Counted from the stretch's first letter, positions 15,287 to 40,785 are shown. The stretch is DNA of 61,141 nucleotides from Actinomycetota bacterium (GCA_005786885.1 SYCR01000039.1:1-61141), one strand, 5' to 3'. Notes: a model not told the origin generated them from the sequence alone. Numbers and translations are program-made.

Positions 15287-16726
15287 ATGCGTCGAGCCAA
15301 AATTGTTTGTACTTTAGGTCCGGCCACTGATGACGCGGTAATGATCGATCGGATGATCTCTGCCGGCATGAACATGGCGCGATTGAATCTTTCGCATGGG
15401 GCGCGCGAAGGTCATGAAAAAACCTTTGAAATGGTGCGCCAAGCCGCAGTAAAAGCGGATGTATCGGTTGCAATTGTTGTGGATCTGCAAGGACCAAAGA
15501 TTAGATTAGGTAAATTCAAAAATGGTTCTCATGAAATTATCAAAGGTGCAAAGTTCACAATCACAACTGAAGTAATTGAAGGCGATGAAAATATCTCCTC
15601 TACAACATATATGGGTTTGTCAGGGGATTGCAAAGTTGGCGATCGGATATTGATTGATGATGGACGAGTAGCCTTAGAAGTAACTTCCGTTAAAGCGCCA
15701 AGAATAGAAACTATTGTTATAGAAGGCGGAACCGTAAGTAACAGTAAAGGCTTGAATTTGCCAGGGGCTGCAGTATCCGTGCCGGCACTTTCAGAAAAAG
15801 ATGAAGAAGATCTGAAATGGGCAATTGGGATGGGTGCAGATTTCATTGCACTCTCATTTGTTCGCGATGCAGCGGACATAAAGCGAGTGCATCAGATTAT
15901 GGATTCTGCCGGAGTGCGAATTCCAGTCATTGCAAAAATTGAAAAGCCACAAGCAGTTGCAAATTTAGAAGAGATAGTTGCCGCATTTGATGCAATCATG
16001 GTAGCTCGTGGTGATTTGGGAGTAGAACTCCTAATGGAGGAAGTTCCATTAGTTCAGAAACGTTGCATTACTCTTGCCCGAGAAAATGCAAAACCTGTAA
16101 TTGTTGCAACTCAAATGCTTGATTCAATGATGTCAAATTCTCGTCCAACACGTGCTGAAGTAAATGATTGCGCTAATGCGGTACTAGATGGCGCAGATGC
16201 TTTAATGCTTTCAGGGGAGACAAGTGTTGGAAAATTTCCAATTGAAACCATTGAGACGATGGCAAGAATCATTGCTAAAACTGAGAAAGAAGCTTTGGAT
16301 ACCGTTGCACCACTTCGACATAATCCACATACAACCGCTGGGGCAATCACTAAAGCGGCTACTGAAGTTGGTGAAGTTGTTGGAGCAAAATTCCTAGTCG
16401 CTTTTACTCAGAGTGGGGATTCGGCAAGAAGAATGTCGCGGTTACGTTCTGCAATCCCTATGTTGGCCTTAACCCCAGATGTGCGTACATCGCGAGTTCT
16501 GGCACTTAGTTGGGGAGTCGAATCGATCGTGATCCCGCCTGCTAGTCATACCGATGAAATGGTTAAGCAGATTGATAGCAAATTAATTGAGAGCAAGAGA
16601 GCAAATATTGGTGATTTCATATTAATTGTGGCTGGAAGTCCTCCTGGAATACCTGGATCAACTAATGCAATGCGAGTACACCGTGTTGGAGATGCCGTTG
16701 CGGGCGTTGTTCCTGCTTATCGCTGA
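15287..16726 (+). CDS. pyk: pyruvate kinase
   Basis: 479 aa with motifs MRRAKIVCTLGP, MNMARLNLSHG and MVARGDLGVE. Confidence 0.95.
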   Translation: MRRAKIVCTLGPATDDAVMIDRMISAGMNMARLNLSHGAREGHEKTFEMVRQAAVKADVSVAIVVDLQGPKIRLGKFKNGSHEIIKGAKFTITTEVIEGDENISSTTYMGLSGDCKVGDRILIDDGRVALEVTSVKAPRIETIVIEGGTVSNSKGLNLPGAAVSVPALSEKDEEDLKWAIGMGADFIALSFVRDAADIKRVHQIMDSAGVRIPVIAKIEKPQAVANLEEIVAAFDAIMVARGDLGVELLMEEVPLVQKRCITLARENAKPVIVATQMLDSMMSNSRPTRAEVNDCANAVLDGADALMLSGETSVGKFPIETIETMARIIAKTEKEALDTVAPLRHNPHTTAGAITKAATEVGEVVGAKFLVAFTQSGDSARRMSRLRSAIPMLALTPDVRTSRVLALSWGVESIVIPPASHTDEMVKQIDSKLIESKRANIGDFILIVAGSPPGIPGSTNAMRVHRVGDAVAGVVPAYR

Positions 16727-16778
16727 GATTAAGTTCTAGTCTTAGAGGTATAAACGATGAAGTTGTTTGGGGGGCCAA

Positions 16779-18398
16779 ATGAGAATTAGCATGAAAATCG
16801 TTTATGCGGCTTTGCTCTCGTTTAGCATCGTTGGCTCCGCTGTTGGAGGAAGTATTCCCGCACACTCTTCAACCTCTTCACTGCCGTCTAGTTGGCCAAA
16901 AGTTCCTTCAATCGGATTCTCATCCAGCGATGACAGTTTGCTAGAAACTAAGTCATACGTGACAGGGTTTTCGTACGCAGAAGGTGCCACTAGTGGCATT
17001 TACTCTCGCACTGTTACCTGCTCAACTGTTGATGATGTTGCTTGTGCTGGTGCTGATTCACTTTTCGCGCAAATGATCCTTTTGCCTTGCTCTTCCACTG
17101 TCACTGAAATGTGTATTGAATCTCTTGAGGTCTCAGATTCAAAAGGTGCTTTGAGAAAAGCAACAATTGGCTATGAATCAGCAGGAGAAAGGTTTCCAGC
17201 TAGCAAAATTCGAAATACCCCTGCCGGGGGAAGTGCAAGTGTGTGGCATGTGAAAGAATCACCTAACGCTTCAGGCTCAGATGAGTACGCAGTAAGTGTT
17301 AGTACAACTTTTCAAAATTACCAGAACAAAGGGTGTACTCAATACATCACCTCTCCATGTGGTTTCACTCGAGGCTTCAGGGCGAGGGTCTATCCAATCA
17401 ACCGCACTTCTAGTATCGAAGCGAACCAGAACTGTCTTTGGAGAGAAGAACAAAAGTGCGTGAAGAAAGTTGATTTTTCTCCTGGTTCGCGTGCAGCCCT
17501 TACGGTCCGAATCGATAATTCACTAACTGGTTTTCTCTTTGGCCGGATGAAAAATGTGACATTGGATTTGACTTCAAGAACACCCACTTCAAATCTTCTT
17601 AGAGTTGAGGCAGATCCGATTGATGTTCCTAAAATTTATGCGTATGTAGCGAAAAGTGATTTAAGTAAATACCCCAAAATCGAGGAGTACTGGAAAACTC
17701 GTCGGCAACAGTTAGCCGCATCTGATTTCACCAGCAACGAGACAATAGATACGGGGCCGGCTCCAGAATGGGCCATGACTGATTTTCAAGCTTTTGATGA
17801 TCTGGTCAAGTCAGGCCCTTTGGTTACTTCAATCTGGAGATTTGGCACGCAAGCCGGAAATGGAACTGGCAGTAAATGTTTTGATGATAAAACCAAACTT
17901 CATGGTTTAGTCACCACAAATGCCCCTACCTATCTTCCCAATCCTCCCTCATTTGAAAATGGTGAACTCGCTTACAAAGTAGCAGGGGCGCATCACTTAG
18001 AAGATGGTGTTACCTTATTTAAAGGATCCTATGATTTAGTTCTCCGGACTGAATTCGCCCGTTGTCTATATGGGTTTTCAAATGCTCCGATTAGCGCAAA
18101 AATTTCCGTTGTTTCTACAAATGGTTCCACGCAAGATATTGCGAGCGAGTCACTGCGAGAAGATGCGGCTCGTCAATGGCTATATCTCAGTGCAAAAAAC
18201 TTCACCTTCTCTGCGCCGACTATTAAAGTTAAATTAATGCAAGATAAACCGATAGTTCCAGCAAAAGAAGAAGCAGCCAAAGCGCCAGGTACCACAGTCG
18301 CCAAAAAAGTAAGCACAATTACCTGCGTTAAAGGCAAGATCACCAAGAAGTATTCCGGAGCAAAACCTAAATGCCCTAGTGGGTTCAAGAAAAAGTAA
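16779..18398 (+). CDS. secreted cysteine-rich protein of unknown function
   Basis: Long ORF with a signal-peptide-like N-terminus (MKIVYAALLSFSIVGSAVGG), 12 Cys by my count, and a basic C-terminal tail ITCVKGKITKKYSGAKPKCPSGFKKK. I recognise no family. The start could be the ATG at 16779 or at 16791; the track's 16767 is a TTG. Confidence 0.6.
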   Translation: MRISMKIVYAALLSFSIVGSAVGGSIPAHSSTSSLPSSWPKVPSIGFSSSDDSLLETKSYVTGFSYAEGATSGIYSRTVTCSTVDDVACAGADSLFAQMILLPCSSTVTEMCIESLEVSDSKGALRKATIGYESAGERFPASKIRNTPAGGSASVWHVKESPNASGSDEYAVSVSTTFQNYQNKGCTQYITSPCGFTRGFRARVYPINRTSSIEANQNCLWREEQKCVKKVDFSPGSRAALTVRIDNSLTGFLFGRMKNVTLDLTSRTPTSNLLRVEADPIDVPKIYAYVAKSDLSKYPKIEEYWKTRRQQLAASDFTSNETIDTGPAPEWAMTDFQAFDDLVKSGPLVTSIWRFGTQAGNGTGSKCFDDKTKLHGLVTTNAPTYLPNPPSFENGELAYKVAGAHHLEDGVTLFKGSYDLVLRTEFARCLYGFSNAPISAKISVVSTNGSTQDIASESLREDAARQWLYLSAKNFTFSAPTIKVKLMQDKPIVPAKEEAAKAPGTTVAKKVSTITCVKGKITKKYSGAKPKCPSGFKKK

Positions 18399-18439: not shown

Positions 18440-19156
18440 ATGTCATTGGTAATTGTCACTGGGGGATCTCGCGGACTGGGCTTTGAAACAGCTAAGGCGT
18501 TACGAGCCCAAGGGCACCAAATTGTTTTGGTTGCTAAAGATAAAGAGCAATTAGCGGAAGTTGCTGCCCAATTAGATTGTGAATATCGAGCAGTCGACTT
18601 AGCCGATTTAGAGGCTGCCAAGAAAACCTTCGAAGAGATATTGGCAAGTTTCGGCACACCAGAAATTTTAATTTTGGCTCATGGAGTAATGAGCGCAAAG
18701 ATGTCTAAGACCTTAAAGACAGATAATGAAGAGTGGCGTCGAGTCATGGCCATTAATCTAGATTCGGTATTTTGTGCTGTAAATACTTTGGCTGCACCAA
18801 TGGCTGAAGCACGAAATGGAAGAGTCATTATTTTCTCTGCTTGTTTAGGTCGAATGTCCGGGCCAGGCAATGCTGGCGGGTTAGCGCCTTACCGAATCAG
18901 CAAAGCAGGAGTAAATGCATTAGTCCGCAACTTGGCACATGAGACTGGCTTAGGTAGTAGGGGAGTTTTAGTTGATGCCATATGTCCGAACCATTCACGG
19001 ACCGACATGGGTGGACCAGGAGCTCTGCTATCTGCCGAAGAGGGTGCCCGCACTGCGATCTGGTTGGCTACGCGAAACTTTGATCTAAATGGATCAACTG
19101 ATCAAGAGAAATTAACTGGAGTGCTTTGGGAAGAGATGAATGTGATTCCATGGTAA
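18440..19156 (+). CDS. SDR-family oxidoreductase
   Basis: 238 aa with a TGGSRGLG cofactor motif and a Y..SK catalytic motif (YRISKAG). Confidence 0.85.
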   Translation: MSLVIVTGGSRGLGFETAKALRAQGHQIVLVAKDKEQLAEVAAQLDCEYRAVDLADLEAAKKTFEEILASFGTPEILILAHGVMSAKMSKTLKTDNEEWRRVMAINLDSVFCAVNTLAAPMAEARNGRVIIFSACLGRMSGPGNAGGLAPYRISKAGVNALVRNLAHETGLGSRGVLVDAICPNHSRTDMGGPGALLSAEEGARTAIWLATRNFDLNGSTDQEKLTGVLWEEMNVIPW

Positions 19157-19169
19157 TTGCAAGTTTTCT

Positions 19170-20642
19170 TTAAATTGTTCCTGCCTCTAATCCTTCAAGA
19201 ACATCCATTGCGCGTTCTTTTAATTCAGGGAGATCTGAAAGCCGATTTAGGCCAAATATCTGTTGACTCATACGGTGATTCTTCACAAATGCTTCTTTGT
19301 GTCGATCCAGAAAATCCCAATACAAAGTTGTGAAAGGGCAGGCCTTTTCACCTACACGTAATTTGGGATCATAAACACAGGGCTTGCAATAGTTAGACAT
19401 TCGTGAAATGTATGCACCACCTGCCGCATATGGCTTTGTCATCATGGTGCCACCATCGGCATGAACGCCCATGCCAATTACATTTGGAACCATTACCCAT
19501 TCAGAGGCATCAATAAAGACCTCACGCATCCACTCCAAAAATTCTTGCGGATTTGTACCGGTAATCAGAGCAAGATTCGAAAGTAACATTAGCCGCGGAA
19601 TATGGTGAACCCATGCGCGATCATCTATGTCAGTTACGGTTTGTTTGATGCAATTCATTTGGGTTTTTTTAGGGTCGTTAAATAAAGGAAGTAATTTCCT
19701 GGCGGCATTTAATTGGTTATTTTCACGGTAATCAGGGCCTAGGAACCAATACATTCCGTTTACGTATTCACGCCAACCGATAACTTGCCGAATAAAACCT
19801 TCGGCAGATTCGATTGGTATCGAACCCTTGTTAAATGCTTGCACAGCCGCTCTGATTACTTCACTTGGGTGTAGTAGTCCGTTGTTTAAGTATGGGGATA
19901 ACAGTGAATGATGAAGTGCCCAGTTATCAGTGGTCATCGCATCTTCAAGCGGGCCAAATTCAGCGAAGTGATTATCAATAAAGTTCTTTAATTGGGCGAG
20001 TGCACCTTTGCGAGTAGTGGCCCAAGTGTTTGTGGGTTCATGAGAAAGCTCAATCGCTACTTGATTATCAATCTCATCTCTCTGATGCTCGAGATATTTC
20101 GGTCCTTCATATTTTTTCGGGGGTGGCAAACGGTTCTCTTTATCGAAGTTCCATGAACCACCGACAGGATCACTGCCCTCCATCAATATATTTAAACGTG
20201 TTCTTTGTTTCCGATAGAAACTTTCCATTAAATAACTTTTTTGATCTTGAGCCCATGAGTGAAATAAGGGCCTAGGAGTCAGAAAGAAATCGTTTTCTAC
20301 AAAAAGAACACCATGAGTTTTGAGTGCTTCAAATTGTCGAAAGGATGAAGGCTCCGCACAGATGATCGAAAGTTTTGGGTATTTCTTTTGAACAATTTTG
20401 AGACCAGATACCGTGGTCGCGGCTTTTACATATTCAACTGTAAACCCTTCATCCTCAAGAGATTTTGCAAAGTGACGGGCGCTAGAGATTAAAAAGAAGA
20501 GTCGTTCTTTGTGCCAATTTCGCCCAGTAGTCATGCGGGCACTTTCGACCAAGACAATCAAATCTTCTTTTGGGTCAGCCTCCTTAAGTGCACCAAATTT
20601 ACGATGTAGGTGATCGAAGGGAATATAGATAATTCTCTTCAT
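19170..20642 (-). CDS. cryptochrome/photolyase-family protein of the Fe-S bacterial (FeS-BCP, CryB/PhrB, COG3046) class, likely a (6-4) photolyase
   Basis: 490 aa with a COG3046-like N-terminus (IPFDHL..., WHKERLFF). It has four Cys arranged C...CxxC-x12-C (NCIKQ, YCKPCVYD, EKACPF), which matches the [4Fe-4S] ligands of PhrB/CryB as I recall them. Confidence 0.85.
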   Translation of the reverse strand: MKRIIYIPFDHLHRKFGALKEADPKEDLIVLVESARMTTGRNWHKERLFFLISSARHFAKSLEDEGFTVEYVKAATTVSGLKIVQKKYPKLSIICAEPSSFRQFEALKTHGVLFVENDFFLTPRPLFHSWAQDQKSYLMESFYRKQRTRLNILMEGSDPVGGSWNFDKENRLPPPKKYEGPKYLEHQRDEIDNQVAIELSHEPTNTWATTRKGALAQLKNFIDNHFAEFGPLEDAMTTDNWALHHSLLSPYLNNGLLHPSEVIRAAVQAFNKGSIPIESAEGFIRQVIGWREYVNGMYWFLGPDYRENNQLNAARKLLPLFNDPKKTQMNCIKQTVTDIDDRAWVHHIPRLMLLSNLALITGTNPQEFLEWMREVFIDASEWVMVPNVIGMGVHADGGTMMTKPYAAGGAYISRMSNYCKPCVYDPKLRVGEKACPFTTLYWDFLDRHKEAFVKNHRMSQQIFGLNRLSDLPELKERAMDVLEGLEAGTI

Positions 20643-20782
20643 TTATTTTCCCGACAACGATTGCTGCAATACTTCACTTCATCCCAGTTCTTGGCCCATT
20701 TTTTGCGCCATTCAAATTTAAGATTGCAACGCACGCAGGTTTTTGGTGGAAACCCATTCTTATCCTTTGCGATTCGTGCCAT
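20639..20782 (-). CDS. DUF2256-like zinc-ribbon protein (47 aa), absent from the ORF track
   Basis: Hand translation of the minus strand gives MARIAKDKNGFPPKTCVRCNLKFEWRKKWAKNWDEVKYCSNRCRENK*. The CxxC...CxxxC pattern and the FEWRKKW..WD.VKYCS..CR core match DUF2256 as I recall it. Its TGA overlaps the photolyase ATG (ATGA). Confidence 0.75.
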   Translation of the reverse strand: MARIAKDKNGFPPKTCVRCNLKFEWRKKWAKNWDEVKYCSNRCRENK

Positions 20783-20844
20783 GATCAAATAATAGTCTTG
20801 AGTAATTAATAATGCAGAAGGAAGGCAGTATTAAATTCTAGGAT

Positions 20845-21621
20845 TTAAGGCAGTGGAATCAAGGTATTGGCAAAAATCTGCCAAGCAAGCGCTGATTTCG
20901 CAATTAATGAGAGCGTTATATAAGTGCGTTCTCCACGCAAGTAATTACTCCACTTGCCTACTTTTTTGTATTGCACCCATTGCACTAAAGCAAAAGAGTT
21001 GAAGAATACAAAAATGGTGAAGACAATTCCATAGACAAATGCTGGGGCTGAAGTATCACTAACACCGCCAATTGAAAGCACATAAAACGCAAGTGCTATC
21101 CAAGGAACAATTCCAGTTATGCAACCAAAAATAAATGGCAACCATCCACCATTTCCTGGTGTCTCATATTTTTCTTGCAACCAGCCAAACAAAATCATCG
21201 AAGCATTTACGCCGAAGATTGAGATTAGTGCAGTTACATCTGCGATGCCAGTCACTTGAGCGATCAACACGATCATCACCGAAGAGCTGATTGAGTATTC
21301 AACCCATCTGAAATAATTTCGTTGAGCTGACAATCCTGCGCTGTAGCGAGGAAAAAATTGTGGGCTAGCCACAATAAAATGGAAGAGCGCAGAAAGTCCT
21401 AAAAAGAGCGCAACGGCTAATCCGATCGGCGTGCTAAAAAGAATTACTGATGGAGCAAATGAGGAACCTGGGGGACCGGCCATGTAAGTGGCAGTTACTG
21501 GCAATGCAAAATCACTGCTTAATGCCAAGACTGCGACCATCTGCAGTAAGTGCAAAATTCCAGCAAAGATATTTACTTTGCGAAGTCGGGCCATAGTCAG
21601 GTCAGTTAGGTCTTTGCTCAT
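20845..21621 (-). CDS. heliorhodopsin
   Basis: 258 aa and 7 TM. Long stretches match the prototype actinobacterial heliorhodopsin as I recall it: HLLQM.AVLAL, GPPG, GLAVALFLGLSALFHFIV, FRWVEYS.SSSVMIVLIAQ (counterion Glu), NASMILFGWLQEKY, FNSFALVQ, KWSNYLRGER, and SL.AKSALAWQIF (Schiff-base Lys). Confidence 0.93.
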   Translation of the reverse strand: MSKDLTDLTMARLRKVNIFAGILHLLQMVAVLALSSDFALPVTATYMAGPPGSSFAPSVILFSTPIGLAVALFLGLSALFHFIVASPQFFPRYSAGLSAQRNYFRWVEYSISSSVMIVLIAQVTGIADVTALISIFGVNASMILFGWLQEKYETPGNGGWLPFIFGCITGIVPWIALAFYVLSIGGVSDTSAPAFVYGIVFTIFVFFNSFALVQWVQYKKVGKWSNYLRGERTYITLSLIAKSALAWQIFANTLIPLP

Positions 21622-21672
21622 AAATTAAAAATACCTCAGATCTCAAGGTAAATTGATAAATCCGTCGTTACG

Positions 21673-21745
21673 TGCCTCGAGTCGGATTTGAACCGACACT
21701 ATGCAGTGTTTGAGACTGCCCTCTCTACCGTTGGAGTACCGAGGC
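21673..21745 (-). tRNA. 73-nt tRNA with anticodon CAA (Leu by anticodon) in my manual fold, but class I with a 5-nt variable loop
   Basis: Minus-strand read: GCCTCGG-TA-CTCC-AACGGTAG-AGAG-G-GCAGT-CTCAAAC-ACTGC-ATAGT-GTCGG-TTCAAAT-CCGAC-TCGAGGC-A. The acceptor stem is 7 bp with one G-U. The T-loop is canonical, with U33 and A37 in place and an A73 discriminator. CCA is not encoded. Confidence 0.75.
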
Positions 21746-21795: not shown

Positions 21796-22401
21796 GTGGC
21801 AAATTCACCCAATACCGATCAGGTGGCTCCAAGAATTATCGTCGCTGAAGATGAGGCGATCATTCGGATGGACCTAATTGAGATGTTGCGCGAGGCTGGA
21901 TATAACGTCATTGGTGAGGCCGTAAATGGTCGCGAGGCGATCTCATTAGCCCGACATTTAAAACCAGATTTGGCGATTTTGGATGTGAAAATGCCTGAGG
22001 TCGATGGCATTTCAGCGGCCGAAGTAATCGTCAGTGAGAAATTGGCGGCGGTATTGATGCTTACCGCCTTTAGCCAGCGAGAGTTAGTTGAGCGGGCCCG
22101 AGATGCTGGGGCAATGGCATACCTAGTTAAGCCATTTTCGATTAGCGATCTGACTCCAGCCATTGAGATGGCCCTGGGCAGATACGCCCAGATTCAGGCC
22201 CTGGAGGCCGAGGTGGGCGAGCTTGGGGAGAGATTGGAAGCCCGAAAGTTGGTGGATCGGGCCAAAGGAGTTTTGATGGCCAATTTGGGGATCAGCGAGC
22301 CAGAGGCATTTAAATGGATCCAAAAGGCCGCAATGGATCAGCGCACCTCAATGAGCGTGGTGAGCGAAGGCGTCCTGGCTCATTATCAGTCGGAGAGTTG
22401 A
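21796..22401 (+). CDS. pdtaR: ANTAR-domain response regulator (PdtaR-like)
   Basis: 201 aa with a GTG start. The receiver domain (IIVAEDEAIIRMDL, DLAILDVKMP) and ANTAR domain (RKLVDRAKGVLM..., AFKWIQKAAMDQR) are near-collinear with mycobacterial PdtaR as I recall it. Confidence 0.9.
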   Translation: MANSPNTDQVAPRIIVAEDEAIIRMDLIEMLREAGYNVIGEAVNGREAISLARHLKPDLAILDVKMPEVDGISAAEVIVSEKLAAVLMLTAFSQRELVERARDAGAMAYLVKPFSISDLTPAIEMALGRYAQIQALEAEVGELGERLEARKLVDRAKGVLMANLGISEPEAFKWIQKAAMDQRTSMSVVSEGVLAHYQSES

Positions 22402-33918: not shown

Positions 33919-36012
33919 ATGCGTCCTGAGATCAGCCGTAAAATGCGGCCATTCGAAGTAATCAGTGATTTTTCTCCAGATGGAGATCAGCCAACTGCGA
34001 TTGCTGAATTAACTCAAAGATTATTGAATAAAGAAAAAGATGTTGTTCTACTAGGTGCTACTGGAACTGGAAAATCAGCAACAGCAGCTTGGTTGATTGA
34101 AAAACTACAGCGCCCAACTTTGGTACTTGCACCAAATAAGACCTTGGCTGCGCAATTGACTCATGAGTTTCGAGAACTTTTACCTGATGCCGCAGTCGAA
34201 TACTGTGTTTCTTATTATGATTATTATCAACCAGACGCTTACGTTCCGCAGACCGATACTTTTATTGAAAAAGACTCATCAATAAACTCTGAAGTAGAGC
34301 GCTTGCGATATTCGGCAACTCACTCTTTATTGACGCGCAGAGATGTGATAGTTGTTTCGACCGTTTCGTGCATTTACGGATTAGGAACACCACAGGAATA
34401 TGTGGATGCGATGCTCGAAATTAATGTGGGAGATACTTTTGAGCGAAATAAACTTTTACGCCGATTCGTAGATATGCAGTATTCGCGAAATGACGTGGCT
34501 TTTGAACGTGGCACATTTCGGGTGCGAGGCGACACAATTGAGATTATTCCGGTGTATCAAGAGACTGCTCTACGTATCGAGATGTTCGGTGATGAGATTG
34601 AAAGAATCCTAACCCTTCACCCGATTACTGGAGAAGTTTTAGCAGAAGATACCCAGGCATTCATTTTCCCAGCATCACATTATGCGGCAAGTAAAGAAAC
34701 GATGGAACGGGCGATATCTGAAATCGAAAGTGAACTCGCCCAACAACTAGAACTATTTGATAAACAAGGAAAACTTTTAGAAGCTCAACGTCTTCGCATG
34801 CGAACAACTTTTGATATCGAGATGATTAGGCAACTGGGATACTGCTCTGGAATCGAGAATTATTCCAGGCAGATCGATGGACGAACTCCGGGATCAGCAC
34901 CAAACTGCTTGTTAGATTATTTCCCAGAAGATTTCCTATGCATAATTGATGAATCACATGTAACTGTTCCACAGATAGGTGCAATGTTTGAAGGTGACTC
35001 ATCCAGAAAACGGACATTAGTTGAACATGGTTTTAGATTGCCAAGTGCAATGGACAATCGGCCGTTGAAGTGGGCTGAATTTTTGGAAAGAGTTGACCAA
35101 AAAGTTTATCTCTCAGCTACTCCAGGAAAATATGAATTGGGAGTAGCCGATGGGGTCGTCGAGCAGGTAATCAGACCTACAGGATTAATTGATCCGAAGA
35201 TTGTTCTCAAGCCAACTACTGGTCAGGTTGATGACTTAATTGCCCAAATAAGAATGAGAAGCGAAAAAAATGAAAGAGTGTTAGTAACAACTTTAACTAA
35301 AAAAATGTCAGAGGATTTAACTGATTATTTGTTAGAGATGGATATTCGAGTTAGGTATTTACATTCAGAGGTAGATACTTTGCGAAGAGTAGAACTCCTT
35401 AGAGAATTACGCTTGGGTGAATATGACGTCCTTATTGGTATTAACTTACTCCGCGAGGGACTGGACTTACCTGAGGTTTCGTTAGTGGCTATTCTTGATG
35501 CCGATAAAGAAGGTTTTTTAAGATCTACTACTTCGCTAATTCAAACCATAGGTAGAGCAGCAAGAAACGTATCCGGTGAAGTCCATATGTACGCCGACAG
35601 GATTACAGATTCCATGCAACGAGCTATCGATGAGACAAATCGACGCAGAGAAAAACAAGTCGCTTACAACACCGAGAAAGGATTAGACCCACAACCACTT
35701 CGCAAGCGCATAGCTGACATCACGGATTCCATAACCAGGGAAGAGGAAGATTCTGAGCAATTACTGGCGAAAGCGAACCGGAACAATCGAGGGTCAGATC
35801 CGTCCATAGGGGGATTCAAGAGCAAGAGCCTTCTCGCTGGGAAAGGTGGAGCGGCATTACCTAAGATGGAGTTATTGGATCTTATTGAATCCTTGACCGC
35901 CCAGATGCGATCAGCTGCGGAAAACCTTCATTTTGAGTTAGCTGCGCGTTTGCGAGATGAGATTCATGAATTAAAACGCGAATTGCGCGGAATGGAGACA
36001 GCCGGATTATGA
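33919..36012 (+). CDS. uvrB: excinuclease ABC subunit B
   Basis: 697 aa with [12 protein letters not shown], helicase motifs and the C-terminal UVR motif (FE.AA.LRDEI). Confidence 0.97.
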
Positions 36013-38861
36013 GCGACCACCTGATTGTAAGGGGAGCAAGGGAACACAATTTAAAAAATATTTCAATTGAAATTCCCAGAAACTCACTTGTGGTCTTTAC
36101 CGGATTATCCGGCTCGGGTAAATCAAGTTTAGCTTTCGATACTATTTTTGCAGAAGGACAGCGGAGATATGTTGAATCTTTAAGTGCATACGCGCGACAA
36201 TTTTTGGGCCAATTAGATAAACCAGATGTTGATTTTATCGAGGGACTTTCACCAGCTGTTTCGATTGACCAAAAGTCTACAAACCGTAATCCAAGATCAA
36301 CGGTTGGAACGATTACTGAAGCCTATGATTATTTTAGATTGCTATATGCAAGAGCAGGAAAACCTCACTGTCCGAAGTGCGGTGATGAAGTTTCTCGTCA
36401 GTCACCTCAACAAATAGTCGATCAGATTTTGGCACTTCCTGATGAAACGAAATTTCATGTTCTTGCTCCAATTGTCCGAGCACGCAAAGGTGAATTCGTA
36501 GATATATTTAAAGATTTAACTTTACAAGGATTTTCAAGAGCAAGAGTCGATGGGAAAGTTTTTTCGTTAGATGAAATTCCAGAACTTAAGAAGCAAGAAA
36601 AACACACCATTGAAGTAGTGGTTGACAGATTAAGTGCAAAAGCAAGTTCACAACAGAGATTAACTGATTCAGTAGAAACTGCGCTAAAACTTGCTAACGG
36701 TATCGTGATTCTTGAATTTGTTGACGAACCAGTAAAATCACCAAATCGAGAAAAAAGCTTCAGCGAAAAAATGGCTTGCATGAAGTGCGAGATCTCTATT
36801 GAGGAGTTTGAACCAAGATCTTTCTCTTTTAACTCTCCTTTTGGAGCGTGTGGAGAATGTGATGGAATCGGAACCCGACTAGTTGTTGATGAAGAGTTGG
36901 TGATTCCAGATGATTCTATTTCAATCTCTGAAGGTGCTATCGCACCTTGGTCCCTTGGTACCAGTTCTGAATACTTTGAAAGGTTATTAGAAGGATTAGG
37001 CAAGGAATTAACTTTTTCCATGGATGCACCCTGGAAGAAATTGAGCGCCAAGGTTAAAGATGCAATTCTCAATGGTTACGACTACGAGGTTCATGTTAAG
37101 TACCGGAATCGTTATGGAAGAACTCGTCAGTACACAACAGGATTTGAAGGCGTAATTCCATTCCTTGAGCGCCGTCACGGAGAAACAGATAGCGACCAAA
37201 GTAGAGATCGACTTGAGGCTTTCATGCGTCAGACTCCGTGCGCCGTATGTAAAGGTGCAAGGCTTAAAAGTGAAATCTTGGCAGTAACTCTTGACGGATT
37301 AAATATTGCCCAACTTTGTGCATTGCCAATAAATGAATGTGCCAAATTTCTGCAGAAATTAACGCTTGGCAAAAGAGAGCGTCAAATTGCTGAACGCGTA
37401 TTGAAAGAAGTCAACGCTCGCCTCGGATTTCTTTTAGATGTGGGCCTTGATTATTTGTCGTTAGATCGCCCAGCAGGATCGCTATCGGGTGGCGAAGCCC
37501 AACGAATTAGATTAGCAACTCAGATTGGTTCAGGTCTGGTTGGAGTTCTTTATGTTCTAGATGAGCCAAGTATCGGGCTTCATCAACGCGACAATGTCCG
37601 ATTAATTGAAACTCTTACAAGATTAAGGGACCTTGGAAATACGCTAATTGTCGTAGAACATGACGAAGAGACAATTAGAGCTGCGGATTGGATTGTAGAT
37701 ATTGGGCCCGGAGCAGGAGAGCACGGCGGAGAAGTCGTTGTTTCAGGAGACTATAAATCTTTACTGTCAGAAAAGAAATCAATTACTGGTGCATATCTAT
37801 CTGGCAGAAGAAGTATCGAGATACCCAAAAAGCGAAGAGCTATAGATCCAAAAAGACAATTGGTAGTAAAGGCTGCACGAGAAAATAACTTACAAAATAT
37901 TGACGTCGCTTTCCCATTATCGACTTTTATCGCGGTGACCGGAGTTAGTGGATCTGGTAAATCTACATTAGTCAACGAAATTCTCTACACATCGCTAGCA
38001 AATAAATTAAATGGTGCCCGGATGGTTCCAGGACGACATCGAACGATTACAGGCGTTGATCAGTTAGACAAAATTGTCCACGTTGATCAATCACCAATTG
38101 GCAGAACGCCAAGATCTAACGCAGCAACTTATACGGGATTATTTGACAAAGTCAGAGCCTTATTTGCCGAGACAAATGAAGCCAAAGTGCGCGGTTACCA
38201 ACAAGGAAGATTCTCATTCAACGTAAAAGGTGGACGCTGTGAGAACTGTTCTGGAGATGGAACCATCACGATTGAAATGAATTTCTTGCCAGATGTATAC
38301 GTTCCATGCGAAGTCTGCCATGGTGCTAGATATAACCGTGAAACCTTAGAAGTTCATTACAAGGGTAAAACTATTGCGGACGTCTTAAATATGCCGATTG
38401 AGCAGGCAAATGAATTCTTTGAAGCCGTGCCAGCAATCGCCAGATACTTAAAAACTTTATGTGATGTGGGACTTGGTTATGTTCGACTAGGACAATCAGC
38501 ACCAACTCTTTCTGGTGGTGAAGCTCAACGAGTCAAGTTAGCCACTGAATTACAACGTAGGTCTACTGGCAGAACTATCTATGTTTTAGATGAACCAACA
38601 ACTGGACTTCACTTCGAAGATGTAAGTAAATTGCTTATAGTTCTAAACCGTTTAGTTAATGCAGGAAACACGGTTGTCGTCATTGAACATAATTTGGATG
38701 TTATTAAATGTGCAGATTGGGTGATAGATCTTGGTCCTGAAGGTGGATCAAGGGGAGGCAGTGTCATCGCTGAAGGCACACCTGAAGACGTAGCCAAGGA
38801 CAAGAAAAGTTTTACTGGCGTATTTTTAAAGCAAGTTCTAAGCGGGAGAAGTAGTGGCTGA
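36009..38861 (+). CDS. uvrA: excinuclease ABC subunit A
   Basis: 950 aa with two ABC modules ([18 protein letters not shown]), LSGGE.QR signatures and zinc-finger Cys clusters. ATGA overlap with uvrB. Confidence 0.97.
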
Positions 38862-40785
38862 TCCGCTTTCCTACCGACCTGAAAATATTCCAACAGAGCC
38901 AGGCGTTTATAGGTTTAGAAATCCAGCGGGAAAAATTATTTATGTTGGAAAAGCAAAAAATTTGCGTTCAAGACTGAGCTCATATTTCCAAAAAAACTTA
39001 CCAGAAAAAACAAAACAAATGGTTTGGACAGCCTCAAGTGTTGATTGGACAATAGTAAAAAATGAGATAGAGGCATTGCAATTAGAGTTCACCTGGATTC
39101 GGAGTGAGTCACCTAGATTTAATGTAATTTTCCGTGATGATAAGTCATATCCATATTTAGCAGTTTCCAGCAAGGACAAATTTCCAAGATTATTCATTAC
39201 CAGAAAAGAAAAACAAAAAGATGTTAAGTATTTTGGTCCATATCCGCATGCTTGGGCTTTACGTGAACTCTATGATTTAGTTCAGTCATCCTTCCCGATC
39301 AGATCATGTAGTGCTGGAGTTTTTAACTCGGCAAAAAGATCAGGGAGACCTTGTTTACTTGGATTTATCGATAAATGCGCCGCTCCATGCGTAGGGAAGA
39401 TTTCAGAAGTAGAACACGTGCAACTTACGAGAGAACTAGTGAATTTTCTCTCCGAAGATCCAACAAAACTTATGGTCACTTTGACAAAAGAAATGGAAGC
39501 TCTGTCTGCAAAAGAAGAGTTCGAAAAAGCGGCTCGTGTTAGAGATCGAGTTGCAGCACTCGAAAAGATTTCAACGACAAACACCGTGGTTTTGCCCGAT
39601 CAAACCGACGCAGATATTTTCGGTTTGCACTTAGAAGAGATAGATGCGGCAGTTACTCTTTTTTTGGTTCGCAAAGGCAGAATTCTGGGCGCTAGATCCT
39701 GGATTGTTGAACGGCCAGATGAATCCGCTCCGGAAGAAATTATGGAAAAAATTCTGCTAAATCATTACTTGGCGGACGGTTTAGAGGATTTCCCGAGAGA
39801 AGTCCTAGTTTCATTTTTGCCAGAATCTAGCAACTCAGTTGAGGAGATTATTTCTGAGCGAAGTGGGCATCGCATGGAAATCAGAGTCCCTCAAAGAGGC
39901 GAGAAAAAAGAACTACACGAAACAGTTATTAGGAACTCTCAAGATGCACTCAATCGCTACCGATTGAAAAGAACAAGTGATTTGAGTACTAGAACTCAAG
40001 CATTAGCTCAATTACAAGAATCACTTGAAATGAATGAAGCTCCGCTACGAATAGAGTGTTTTGATATTTCCAATTTGCTAGGCACGCAAATGGTTGCTTC
40101 TATGGTGGTGTTCGAAGATGGAGTTCCTAAAAAATCCGAGTATCGGAGATTTGAAATCAATCTTCCTGAGAACGGAACTCTTGATGACACTGCTGCAATA
40201 AATCAGGTATTGACTCGAAGACTTAATCGCTTGAAAATTGAAAATGACTTAGACGAGAACAATAGAGATGAAAAATTGGTCAAAAAGTTTGCTTACAAAC
40301 CACAGTTAATTATTGTGGATGGAGGCAAGCCGCAAGTGAGTGCGGCTGCAAGAGCTTTGGAAGGATTTGACATTGCATTTTGCGGCATAGCCAAGCGGCT
40401 TGAAGAAGTGTGGCTTCCAAATCAAAAAGATCCAATAATTTTCCCACGTAACAGCGAAGCGATGTATTTGGTGCAACGTATTCGTGATGAGGCTCATCGT
40501 TTTGCGATCACGTATCACCGTTCGAAACGGTCAAAAGCGATGTTGGAATCTACGCTGGAAGATATTCCAGGATTGGGTCAAGCAAGAGCTCGTTCACTTA
40601 TTGCCCATTTTGGATCTGTGGCAAAGTTGAAAGCAGCATCCGAGGAGCAGGTGGCCCAACTTCCGGGAATTGGTATTAAATTGGCGAAAGTGATTGTGGA
40701 GTATTTGGCGGGATCAACCACGACAGGAGAGGCATCGTTAATTCCTGGAATCGATATGGCGACAGGGGAGATACTTGACAGCTGA
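38854..40785 (+). CDS. uvrC: excinuclease ABC subunit C
   Basis: 643 aa with a GIY-YIG N-terminus (GVYRF...[14 protein letters not shown]), a UVR domain, an endonuclease V-like domain and (HhH)2. The GTG start overlaps the uvrA end. Confidence 0.95.

Follow-up and report, generated by a model that had tools for sequence, protein, structure and literature searches.

In Trichococcus flocculiformis, the photolyase TfPHR, which is stimulated by the heliorhodopsin (HeR) TfHeR, is a class II cyclobutane pyrimidine dimer (CPD) photolyase (PMC9769723), and the HeR operons assigned to a 'photolyase group' come from Firmicutes and Chloroflexi only, with deoxyribodipyrimidine photolyases that are of class II where the class is stated and mostly with DUF2238 (PMC11109279, Suppl. 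Data 3). In Nanopelagicales, HeR is found in the arrangement nadE-glnA-HeR, a context in which it was reported to bind glutamine synthetase and to regulate this enzyme (Cho et al. 2022, as cited in PMC11109279). A survey of HeR neighbourhoods lists SOUL and DNA photolyase among the recurrent neighbours tied to oxidative stress, and a short-chain dehydrogenase/reductase (SDR) as a further HeR neighbour (Chazan et al., bioRxiv 10.1101/2021.02.16.431466). We here analyse an HeR gene that lies beside genes for a DUF2256 zinc-ribbon protein and an iron–sulphur (Fe-S) photolyase of the (6-4) type in a 61,141 nt stretch from an Actinomycetota bacterium (GCA_005786885.1 SYCR01000039.1:1-61141; hereafter the window, with coordinates counted from its first letter). 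An initial annotation had taken the three genes for one compact, three-component light operon, and had given the photolyase stimulated by a Firmicute HeR as a class I CPD enzyme, which the class II assignment of TfPHR corrects. We consider it reasonably probable that the locus, which belongs to the Nanopelagicaceae (acI), consists instead of two adjacent, separately promoted units, i.e. HeR on the one hand and DUF2256–photolyase on the other, to which HeR is only loosely linked. The core of the locus reads as follows.

20845..21621, minus strand: HeR gene, 258 aa (PF18761, E 6e-97; NF038020, 343.6 bits)
20783..20844, minus strand: HeR–DUF2256 spacer, 62 nt, containing the promoter-like elements of DUF2256–photolyase
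20639..20782, minus strand: DUF2256 zinc-ribbon open reading frame (ORF), 47 aa from ATG (49 aa from an upstream TTG; PF10013, E 6e-19)
19170..20642, minus strand: photolyase gene, a PhrB-like, (6-4)-type member of the Fe-S bacterial cryptochromes and photolyases (FeS-BCP), 490 aa (PF04244, E 1e-46)

As in the TfHeR–TfPHR type, the HeR and photolyase genes are close together on a common strand with a small DUF gene between them. Unlike that type, however, the photolyase is an Fe-S (6-4)-type FeS-BCP and not a class II CPD enzyme, the intervening gene encodes a soluble zinc ribbon (DUF2256) and not the membrane protein DUF2238, and the photolyase pair carries a promoter signature of its own; neither a class II CPD photolyase nor DUF2238 thus stands beside this HeR. 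The photolyase group of PMC11109279 contains no actinobacterial case, whereas the host of the window is actinobacterial. The locus shares with nadE-glnA-HeR the organism family, HeRs that are 72–83 % identical and a position of HeR beside a gene for a soluble enzyme, but its HeR is not beside glnA. Chazan et al. already list DPRP and DUF2256 beside actinobacterial HeRs (Dataset S3), and SOUL, photolyase and SDR as recurrent neighbours, although they tabulate families only and describe no DUF2256–photolyase bicistron, coupling, promoter signatures or clade geometries. The locus is a further, differently composed example of a known and tabulated HeR–photolyase neighbourhood and not a new three-component operon.

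Among the loci compared, the conserved unit is DUF2256–photolyase and not the trio with HeR. In the window, the TGA of DUF2256 and the ATG of the photolyase share 4 nt (AAATGAAG, an ATGA overlap at 20639..20642). The translational coupling that had been read from this overlap holds and recurs: of 80 metagenome loci fetched via the photolyase (photolyase identity 82–94 %; 69 clusters after dereplication), about 70 have DUF2256 directly 5' of the photolyase and overlapping it in the same way, whatever the context further upstream and with or without HeR. The geometry is also present in one complete genome (L169) and in L171 and L172, and the coupling extends to a pair that is 67 % identical (L164–L168).

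Outside this lineage, DUF2256 stands directly 5' of a gene of the cryptochrome/photolyase family (CPF) in four of seven contexts, namely before a classical PF00875/PF03441 photolyase in L083 and L174 and before a DPRP gene in L164 and L175, and no HeR was found inside the fetched flanks of these four pairs. Therefore, as far as these contexts show, DUF2256 is a general companion of photolyase genes, in line with its initial description as a family often found beside photolyase and cryptochrome genes. The role of an HeR adaptor, which had been proposed for the zinc-ribbon protein, is unlikely in general, because Bacteroidota-like contigs also pair DUF2256 with photolyases and we know of no diderm bacteria with HeR. 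The pairs at L083 4001–6445, L174 1372–5071 and L175 3501–6700, on Bacteroidota-like and other contigs, are accompanied by genes for an SDR, a flavin reductase, GTP cyclohydrolase I, DUF2805 and MarR/TetR regulators, which looks like a recurrent photolyase-associated set that includes an SDR, as in the window.

The spacer between HeR and DUF2256 carries a promoter-like element at 20789..20817 on the minus strand, i.e. CTGCAT (20812–20817), 17 nt, TATTAT (20789–20794), 6 nt and the ATG of DUF2256, which has no Shine–Dalgarno sequence. Upstream of photolyase-coupled DUF2256 genes, a TANNNT hexamer ends 5–7 nt before the start codon in 51/54 distinct sequences (35 at 6 nt and 14 at 7 nt), while random positions carry this signature at 3.8 %, and this -10 hexamer is preceded, at a distance of 17 nt, by a -35-like (c/a)TGAAA or TGGCCA. 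HeR shows the same signature, with TATTTT at 21628..21633 (minus strand), 6 nt before its ATG, and TANNNT is found 6–7 nt before the HeR ATG in nearly all Nanopelagicaceae HeR loci. A -10 hexamer a few nucleotides before the ATG is the geometry typical of actinobacterial leaderless mRNAs. Within the window, 12 of 50 ORFs bear the signature and lack a Shine–Dalgarno sequence, most of them first genes of apparent operons by reading (pyk, pdtaR, polA, uvrB, tkt and others; for example at 15287, 21796, 29056, 33919 and 52033), which suggests widespread leaderless transcription in this organism; the photolyase gene is without it. The element before DUF2256 suggests a predicted promoter and leaderless mRNA for DUF2256–photolyase, and HeR and DUF2256–photolyase are most likely separate transcription units. 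The description as one compact operon is not supported, given a conserved promoter-like element of leaderless geometry within the 62-nt spacer and the same signature on HeR. In a simple promoter scan, which was not relied on, promoter-like sites were less frequent than in shuffled sequence, with one weak site (TTGATT-16-TAGAAT) at the HeR stop.

HeR and DUF2256–photolyase are also arranged differently among relatives. Among species-representative genomes, the 80 loci with the closest HeRs all belong to Nanopelagicaceae (acI freshwater Actinobacteria; HeR identity 72–93 %). The exact order pdtaR, tRNA-Leu, HeR, DUF2256, photolyase and SDR is present in L088 and L171 only, which form one species-level clade with the window (photolyases 90–96 % identical); in L171, pyk follows further on, as in the window. 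The sister lineage L172 (photolyase 92 %, HeR 94 % identical) and L087 have a 2.1-kb insertion between HeR and DUF2256–photolyase, made up of a ROK kinase gene on the opposite (minus) strand and a SIS-domain gene on the plus strand, and L001, which has the closest HeR on a short contig, probably carries the same ROK/SIS insertion as L172. HeR and DUF2256–photolyase are adjacent and co-directional in L009, while in L137, L010, L011 and L024 the co-directional HeR and photolyase genes are separated by 0.6–3.7 kb of other genes. In further loci the two units are divergent, with 50 nt between start codons in L092, L094, L096, L098, L105, L119 and L124 and 62 nt in L107, or HeR lies downstream of the photolyase (L103 and L089). 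About 27 of the 80 species have HeR in the nadE-glnA-HeR context, and in the complete genome OZ254150 such an HeR (glnA context, near 336 kb) is about 108 kb away from DUF2256–photolyase (near 444 kb). In the photolyase tree, linked pairs make up five to six clades, each with its own geometry, whereas the loci of the largest clade, about 45 in number, are unlinked; the HeR and photolyase trees are broadly congruent for the linked pairs. Tabulated in this way, the exact adjacency that the three-component proposal expected is conserved within a single clade, is interrupted by ROK/SIS genes in the sister lineage and is absent from OZ254150, where 108 kb separate the two units. Five of the loci (L003, L010, L023, L025 and L033) bear the titles 'Bifidobacterium breve', 'Bifidobacterium sp.' or 'Clavibacter sp.'; their HeRs are 76–88 % identical to that of the window and fall among Nanopelagicaceae, and these public taxonomy labels are probably wrong.

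In the divergent loci, two -10-like hexamers lie about 24 nt apart (for example at L092 4811–4861); therefore, the divergent promoters must overlap, which hints at shared or mutually exclusive control of HeR and DUF2256–photolyase in this clade.

The three proteins themselves are readily assigned, and the profile searches proposed for the three families were run and matched in every case (PF18761, PF10013 and PF04244). HeR scores 324 bits against PF18761 (cutoff 26.7; profile positions 1–242 of 242) and 343.6 bits against the NCBIfam equivalog NF038020 (cutoff 100), and aligns end to end with the 48C12 structures 6SU3/9LJJ (374 bits, ~69 % identity). Its counterion Glu108 in transmembrane helix (TM) 3 and its Schiff-base Lys242 in TM7 match E107 and K241 of 48C12, so that both key residues are intact as first noted, and His24 and His81 are retained as well in this alignment. 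Given the ~69 % identity to 48C12, an inverted membrane topology and retinal binding can be inferred. As 48C12 is ~69–71 % identical to every HeR fetched and is placed outside all of them, it is uninformative on gene context.

The photolyase has DPRP as its N-terminal domain and aligns with PhrB of Agrobacterium fabrum (4DJA) over residues 2–487 with 378.6 bits and with CryB of Rhodobacter sphaeroides (3ZXS) with 352 bits. It resembles both in its full length and in the four Fe-S cysteines, i.e. Cys331, Cys419, Cys422 and Cys435, which match C350, C438, C441 and C454 of PhrB. His346-His347 correspond to His365 and the catalytic His366 of PhrB, equivalents of Leu370, Met410 and Trp390 are kept, and the stretches VHHIPRLM and NVIGMG align with AHHIQRLM and NVIGMS of PhrB. 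Repair of (6-4) photoproducts would be expected by homology. Unlike PhrB, however, the window photolyase has Asp (residue 323) in place of Trp342 (CryB W338), a position occupied by Trp in PhrB, CryB and 8IJY but by Asp, Asn or Glu in all of the 90-odd relatives examined (including L010, L011 and L084–L172). Trp342 is the FAD-proximal electron-transfer residue required for photoreduction in PhrB/CryB and is 'conserved in most FeS-BCP' (PMC4619345). The Trp342/Trp390 electron-transfer pair is thus incomplete in the window photolyase, but it does not strictly define the family, because it is conserved in most and not in all FeS-BCP. An upstream DUF2256 partner, which the window photolyase has, is not mentioned in the passages on PhrB that were consulted.

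The DUF2256 ORF scores 68.3 bits against PF10013 (cutoff 25). Its Cys16, Cys19, Cys39 and Cys43 form the CxxC...CxxxC pattern, K and R make up 14 of its 47 residues and render it very basic (net charge about +9), and C16, R26, K28, W29, V36, C39 and C43 are invariant among 43 homologues. An AlphaFold2 model has a mean predicted local distance difference test score (pLDDT) of 83, and a sequence search of the Protein Data Bank (PDB) returned chance C2H2 matches only. Homologues fall into 1607 representative clusters, of which the best 150 are almost all 43–120 aa long; among these 150 there is no fusion to a photolyase, and the few long members have MFS, YCII or no second domain. DUF2256 has been placed in the TRASH zinc-ribbon clan (PMC4047054) and ranks among the most common uncharacterised domains of small bacterial proteins (PMC11796252); the papers found to name it assign no function. 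A second type (45 aa, ~70 % identical) stands alone in L002–L005, e.g. at L005 6769–6906 on the minus strand, where a toxin–antitoxin-like gene pair adjoins it, and a similar uncoupled copy is found near the photolyase in L125, L128, L149 and L159.

Taken as two units, the locus would work as follows. The first unit would be a monocistronic HeR gene, whose start codon follows a -10 hexamer at 6 nt, suggestive of a leaderless mRNA. The second would be an apparently leaderless bicistron of DUF2256 and the PhrB-type Fe-S (6-4) photolyase joined through the ATGA overlap, and translational coupling would yield DUF2256 in a fixed ratio with the photolyase, which is expected to use FAD, a [4Fe-4S] cluster and blue light for the repair of (6-4) photoproducts. 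DUF2256 would most likely be a small DNA-binding or photolyase-binding accessory of CPF enzymes generally and not a link to HeR. HeR would be a separately promoted neighbour, and its co-location may reflect shared light-related regulation. Around both units, genes for SOUL haem-binding, TspO, OYE flavin oxidoreductase, cytochrome b5-like, PsiE-like, UbiA and SDR proteins are found in shuffled order. HeR would neighbour DUF2256–photolyase because both units belong to this common pool of reshuffled genes for light and oxidative stress (SOUL, TspO, OYE, cytochrome b5 and SDR), and the tie would therefore be a loose co-location or co-regulation rather than an obligatory three-part machine.

Several observations weigh against this reading of two loosely linked units. 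The minus strand of the 62-nt spacer contains no terminator-like hairpin found by our scan (RNA fold z-score 0.21), so that read-through from HeR is possible, and folding of the spacer and of the photolyase 3' end gave no structure beyond that of shuffled sequences. The promoters and leaderless starts are predictions from the position of the motifs. In a five-species clade, seen in L002–L005, the lone DUF2256 gene is convergent with HeR and lies 13 nt after its stop, with no photolyase within 6 kb in L005, the locus checked. A fold search of the PDB with the DUF2256 model gave no match with E <1, the top, non-significant ones being YacG, an FCS finger and the XPA zinc finger. Finally, linkage in five to six clades of differing geometry, including the 50-nt divergent one, is compatible with a real functional link, and HeR and DUF2256–photolyase are near each other more often than expected. 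From the HeR side, a photolyase lies within 6 kb in 4/80 species and DUF2256 in 10/80; from the photolyase side, HeR lies within 5 kb in 12/69 dereplicated clusters. Compared with the ~0.9 % expected by chance for a stretch of that size in a 1.4-Mb genome, these 5–17 % of loci amount to a 6- to 20-fold excess, although the counts are not independent events because the loci are related.

It is, however, unlikely that HeR, DUF2256 and photolyase form a true light operon, co-transcribed by read-through, in which illuminated HeR binds and stimulates the photolyase directly or via DUF2256 in the manner of TfHeR. The genes of the window do share a strand, with a 62-nt gap, a 4-nt overlap and no terminator-like site in the spacer, TfHeR is a precedent for an HeR that binds and stimulates a co-located photolyase (PMC9769723), the proximity is well above chance in several clades and geometries, and a lone DUF2256 abuts HeR in one clade. 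But a conserved -35/-10-like element (motif evidence) precedes DUF2256 in 51/54 contexts, that of the window included, and without a Shine–Dalgarno sequence this gene would be poorly translated from an internal position. The gene order of the window is kept only in L088, L171 and partly in L009, an opposite-strand gene intervenes between HeR and DUF2256–photolyase in the sister lineage, and HeR is divergent from or downstream of the photolyase in other clades. Most HeRs and most photolyases of the family are unlinked, DUF2256–photolyase pairs are found on contigs without HeR inside the fetched flanks, and a different freshwater actinobacterium has unlinked heR and cryB genes, whose expression dynamics are not alike (PMC8591293). 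According to Dataset S3 of the survey by Chazan et al., PF04244 DPRP is beside 32 of 876 actinobacterial group-A HeRs (3.65 %; 14 of the 32 co-orientable, at a median distance of three genes) and PF10013 DUF2256 beside 18 of 876 (2.05 %). Both are far above background, but they are equally frequent beside proton-pump rhodopsins, with no difference from the DTE proton-pump neighbourhoods (P 0.52 and 0.67, respectively), and the authors concluded that photolyase neighbours are not HeR-specific. A direct HeR–photolyase interaction as in Trichococcus is, to our judgement, equally doubtful or slightly more so. In the same direction, one may speculate that several acI lineages have a functional tie between HeR and the pair of DUF2256 and Fe-S (6-4) photolyase, either by direct binding that tunes repair under green light or by shared promoter control, at which the 50-nt divergent arrangement hints, and that DUF2256 might bridge the two or relay electrons for a photolyase lacking Trp342; we regard this as quite improbable. 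Regarding the initial three-component proposal, the family assignments and the DUF2256–photolyase coupling stand, while the operon and the conserved adjacency are not supported and an adaptor role is unlikely in general; the novelty of the arrangement is not supported either, since DPRP and DUF2256 were already listed among actinobacterial HeR neighbours in Dataset S3.

A juxtaposition without any functional or regulatory meaning, i.e. unrelated accessory genes in a variable slot by tRNA-Leu between pdtaR and pyk, is likewise unlikely. The slot does adjoin a tRNA gene and is flanked by core housekeeping genes, sister lineages differ in what lies between HeR and photolyase, and the context of HeR is highly variable across the family. 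A neutral slot hardly explains, however, the 6- to 20-fold enrichment, the linkage in five to six photolyase clades or the broadly congruent trees of linked pairs. When tested against background in the published work, DPRP and DUF2256 near HeR are also highly significant, although nearly every family in Dataset S3 is so and relatedness was uncorrected. Very unlikely, in our opinion, is that DUF2256 is no partner of the photolyase but a small zinc-ribbon DNA-binding regulator of its own operon and perhaps of nearby light-stress genes including HeR. Its strongly basic composition, the invariant aromatic and basic residues and its place as first gene of the operon would suit a regulator, as would its occurrence alone beside HeR in L002–L005 and without an adjacent photolyase in three of the seven distant contexts. 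Yet the 4-nt coupling is kept across two photolyase classes, which fits fixed-ratio synthesis better than a low-copy regulator, and the protein has no helix–turn–helix and matched no solved DNA-binding homologue, its fold matches being non-significant. Two separately promoted neighbours remain our preferred reading.

The surroundings of the core agree with the initial description, with the three co-directional genes, the 62-nt spacer, the tRNA and the SDR gene 13 nt away all lying where it had placed them. On the minus strand, the order tRNA-Leu(CAA), HeR, DUF2256 and photolyase spans 21745 down to 19170, and the core is flanked as follows.

21796..22401, plus strand: ANTAR response regulator gene, beyond the tRNA
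21672..21745, minus strand: tRNA-Leu(CAA) gene (ARAGORN; Rfam RF00005, 54 bits), co-directional, 50 nt 5' of the HeR ATG
18440..19156, plus strand: SDR oxidoreductase gene, convergent (PF00106, E 2e-35), its end 13 nt from the photolyase stop

The tRNA was the sole match of an Rfam scan and is also found 5' of HeR in L001, L087, L088, L171 and L172. The SDR gene is loosely tied to the photolyase, being adjacent and convergent in L085, L088, L171 and L172 and located 2–3 kb upstream in L106, L108, L110, L115 and L126. Next to it, a 543-aa ORF at 16767–18398 (plus strand) has no Pfam match and a hydrophobic N-terminus that by eye resembles a signal peptide; it is kept beside the SDR gene in L171 (539 aa) and L172 (560 aa). 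No retinal-synthesis gene had been seen in the window, and this was borne out, as carotenoid and Blh families had no matches among the ten ORFs that could not be named by eye and the remaining ones are, by reading, housekeeping genes (his, trp, gltBD, pyk, polA, uvrABC, gap-pgk-tpi, tkt/tal and suf). The uvrB, uvrA and uvrC genes are together at 33919–40785 (plus strand; ORF N-termini read), about 13 kb from the photolyase, which looks like ordinary actinobacterial core synteny outside the cassette. In L018 (Actinobacteria bacterium IMCC26077, CP015606), ARAGORN reported two tRNA-like genes with the four-base anticodons aacg and cacg (647–721 and 1324–1398), which adjoin tRNA-Val upstream of the HeR locus.

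The partners so far proposed for HeR, i.e. glutamine synthetase, class II photolyase and an ABC transporter, were each derived from gene neighbourhood. The window adds to these a further type of neighbour, an Fe-S (6-4)-type photolyase, in a highly abundant group of freshwater bacteria, although the comparative data argue against reading HeR–DUF2256–photolyase as an operon. If binding of HeR to this photolyase were nonetheless true, the TfHeR precedent would be extended to the most ancient photolyase class. The more solid by-product is that DUF2256 appears as a companion of photolyases of two classes, apparently leaderless and coupled to them in translation, and this coupling provides a concrete, testable hypothesis on what DUF2256 may do.

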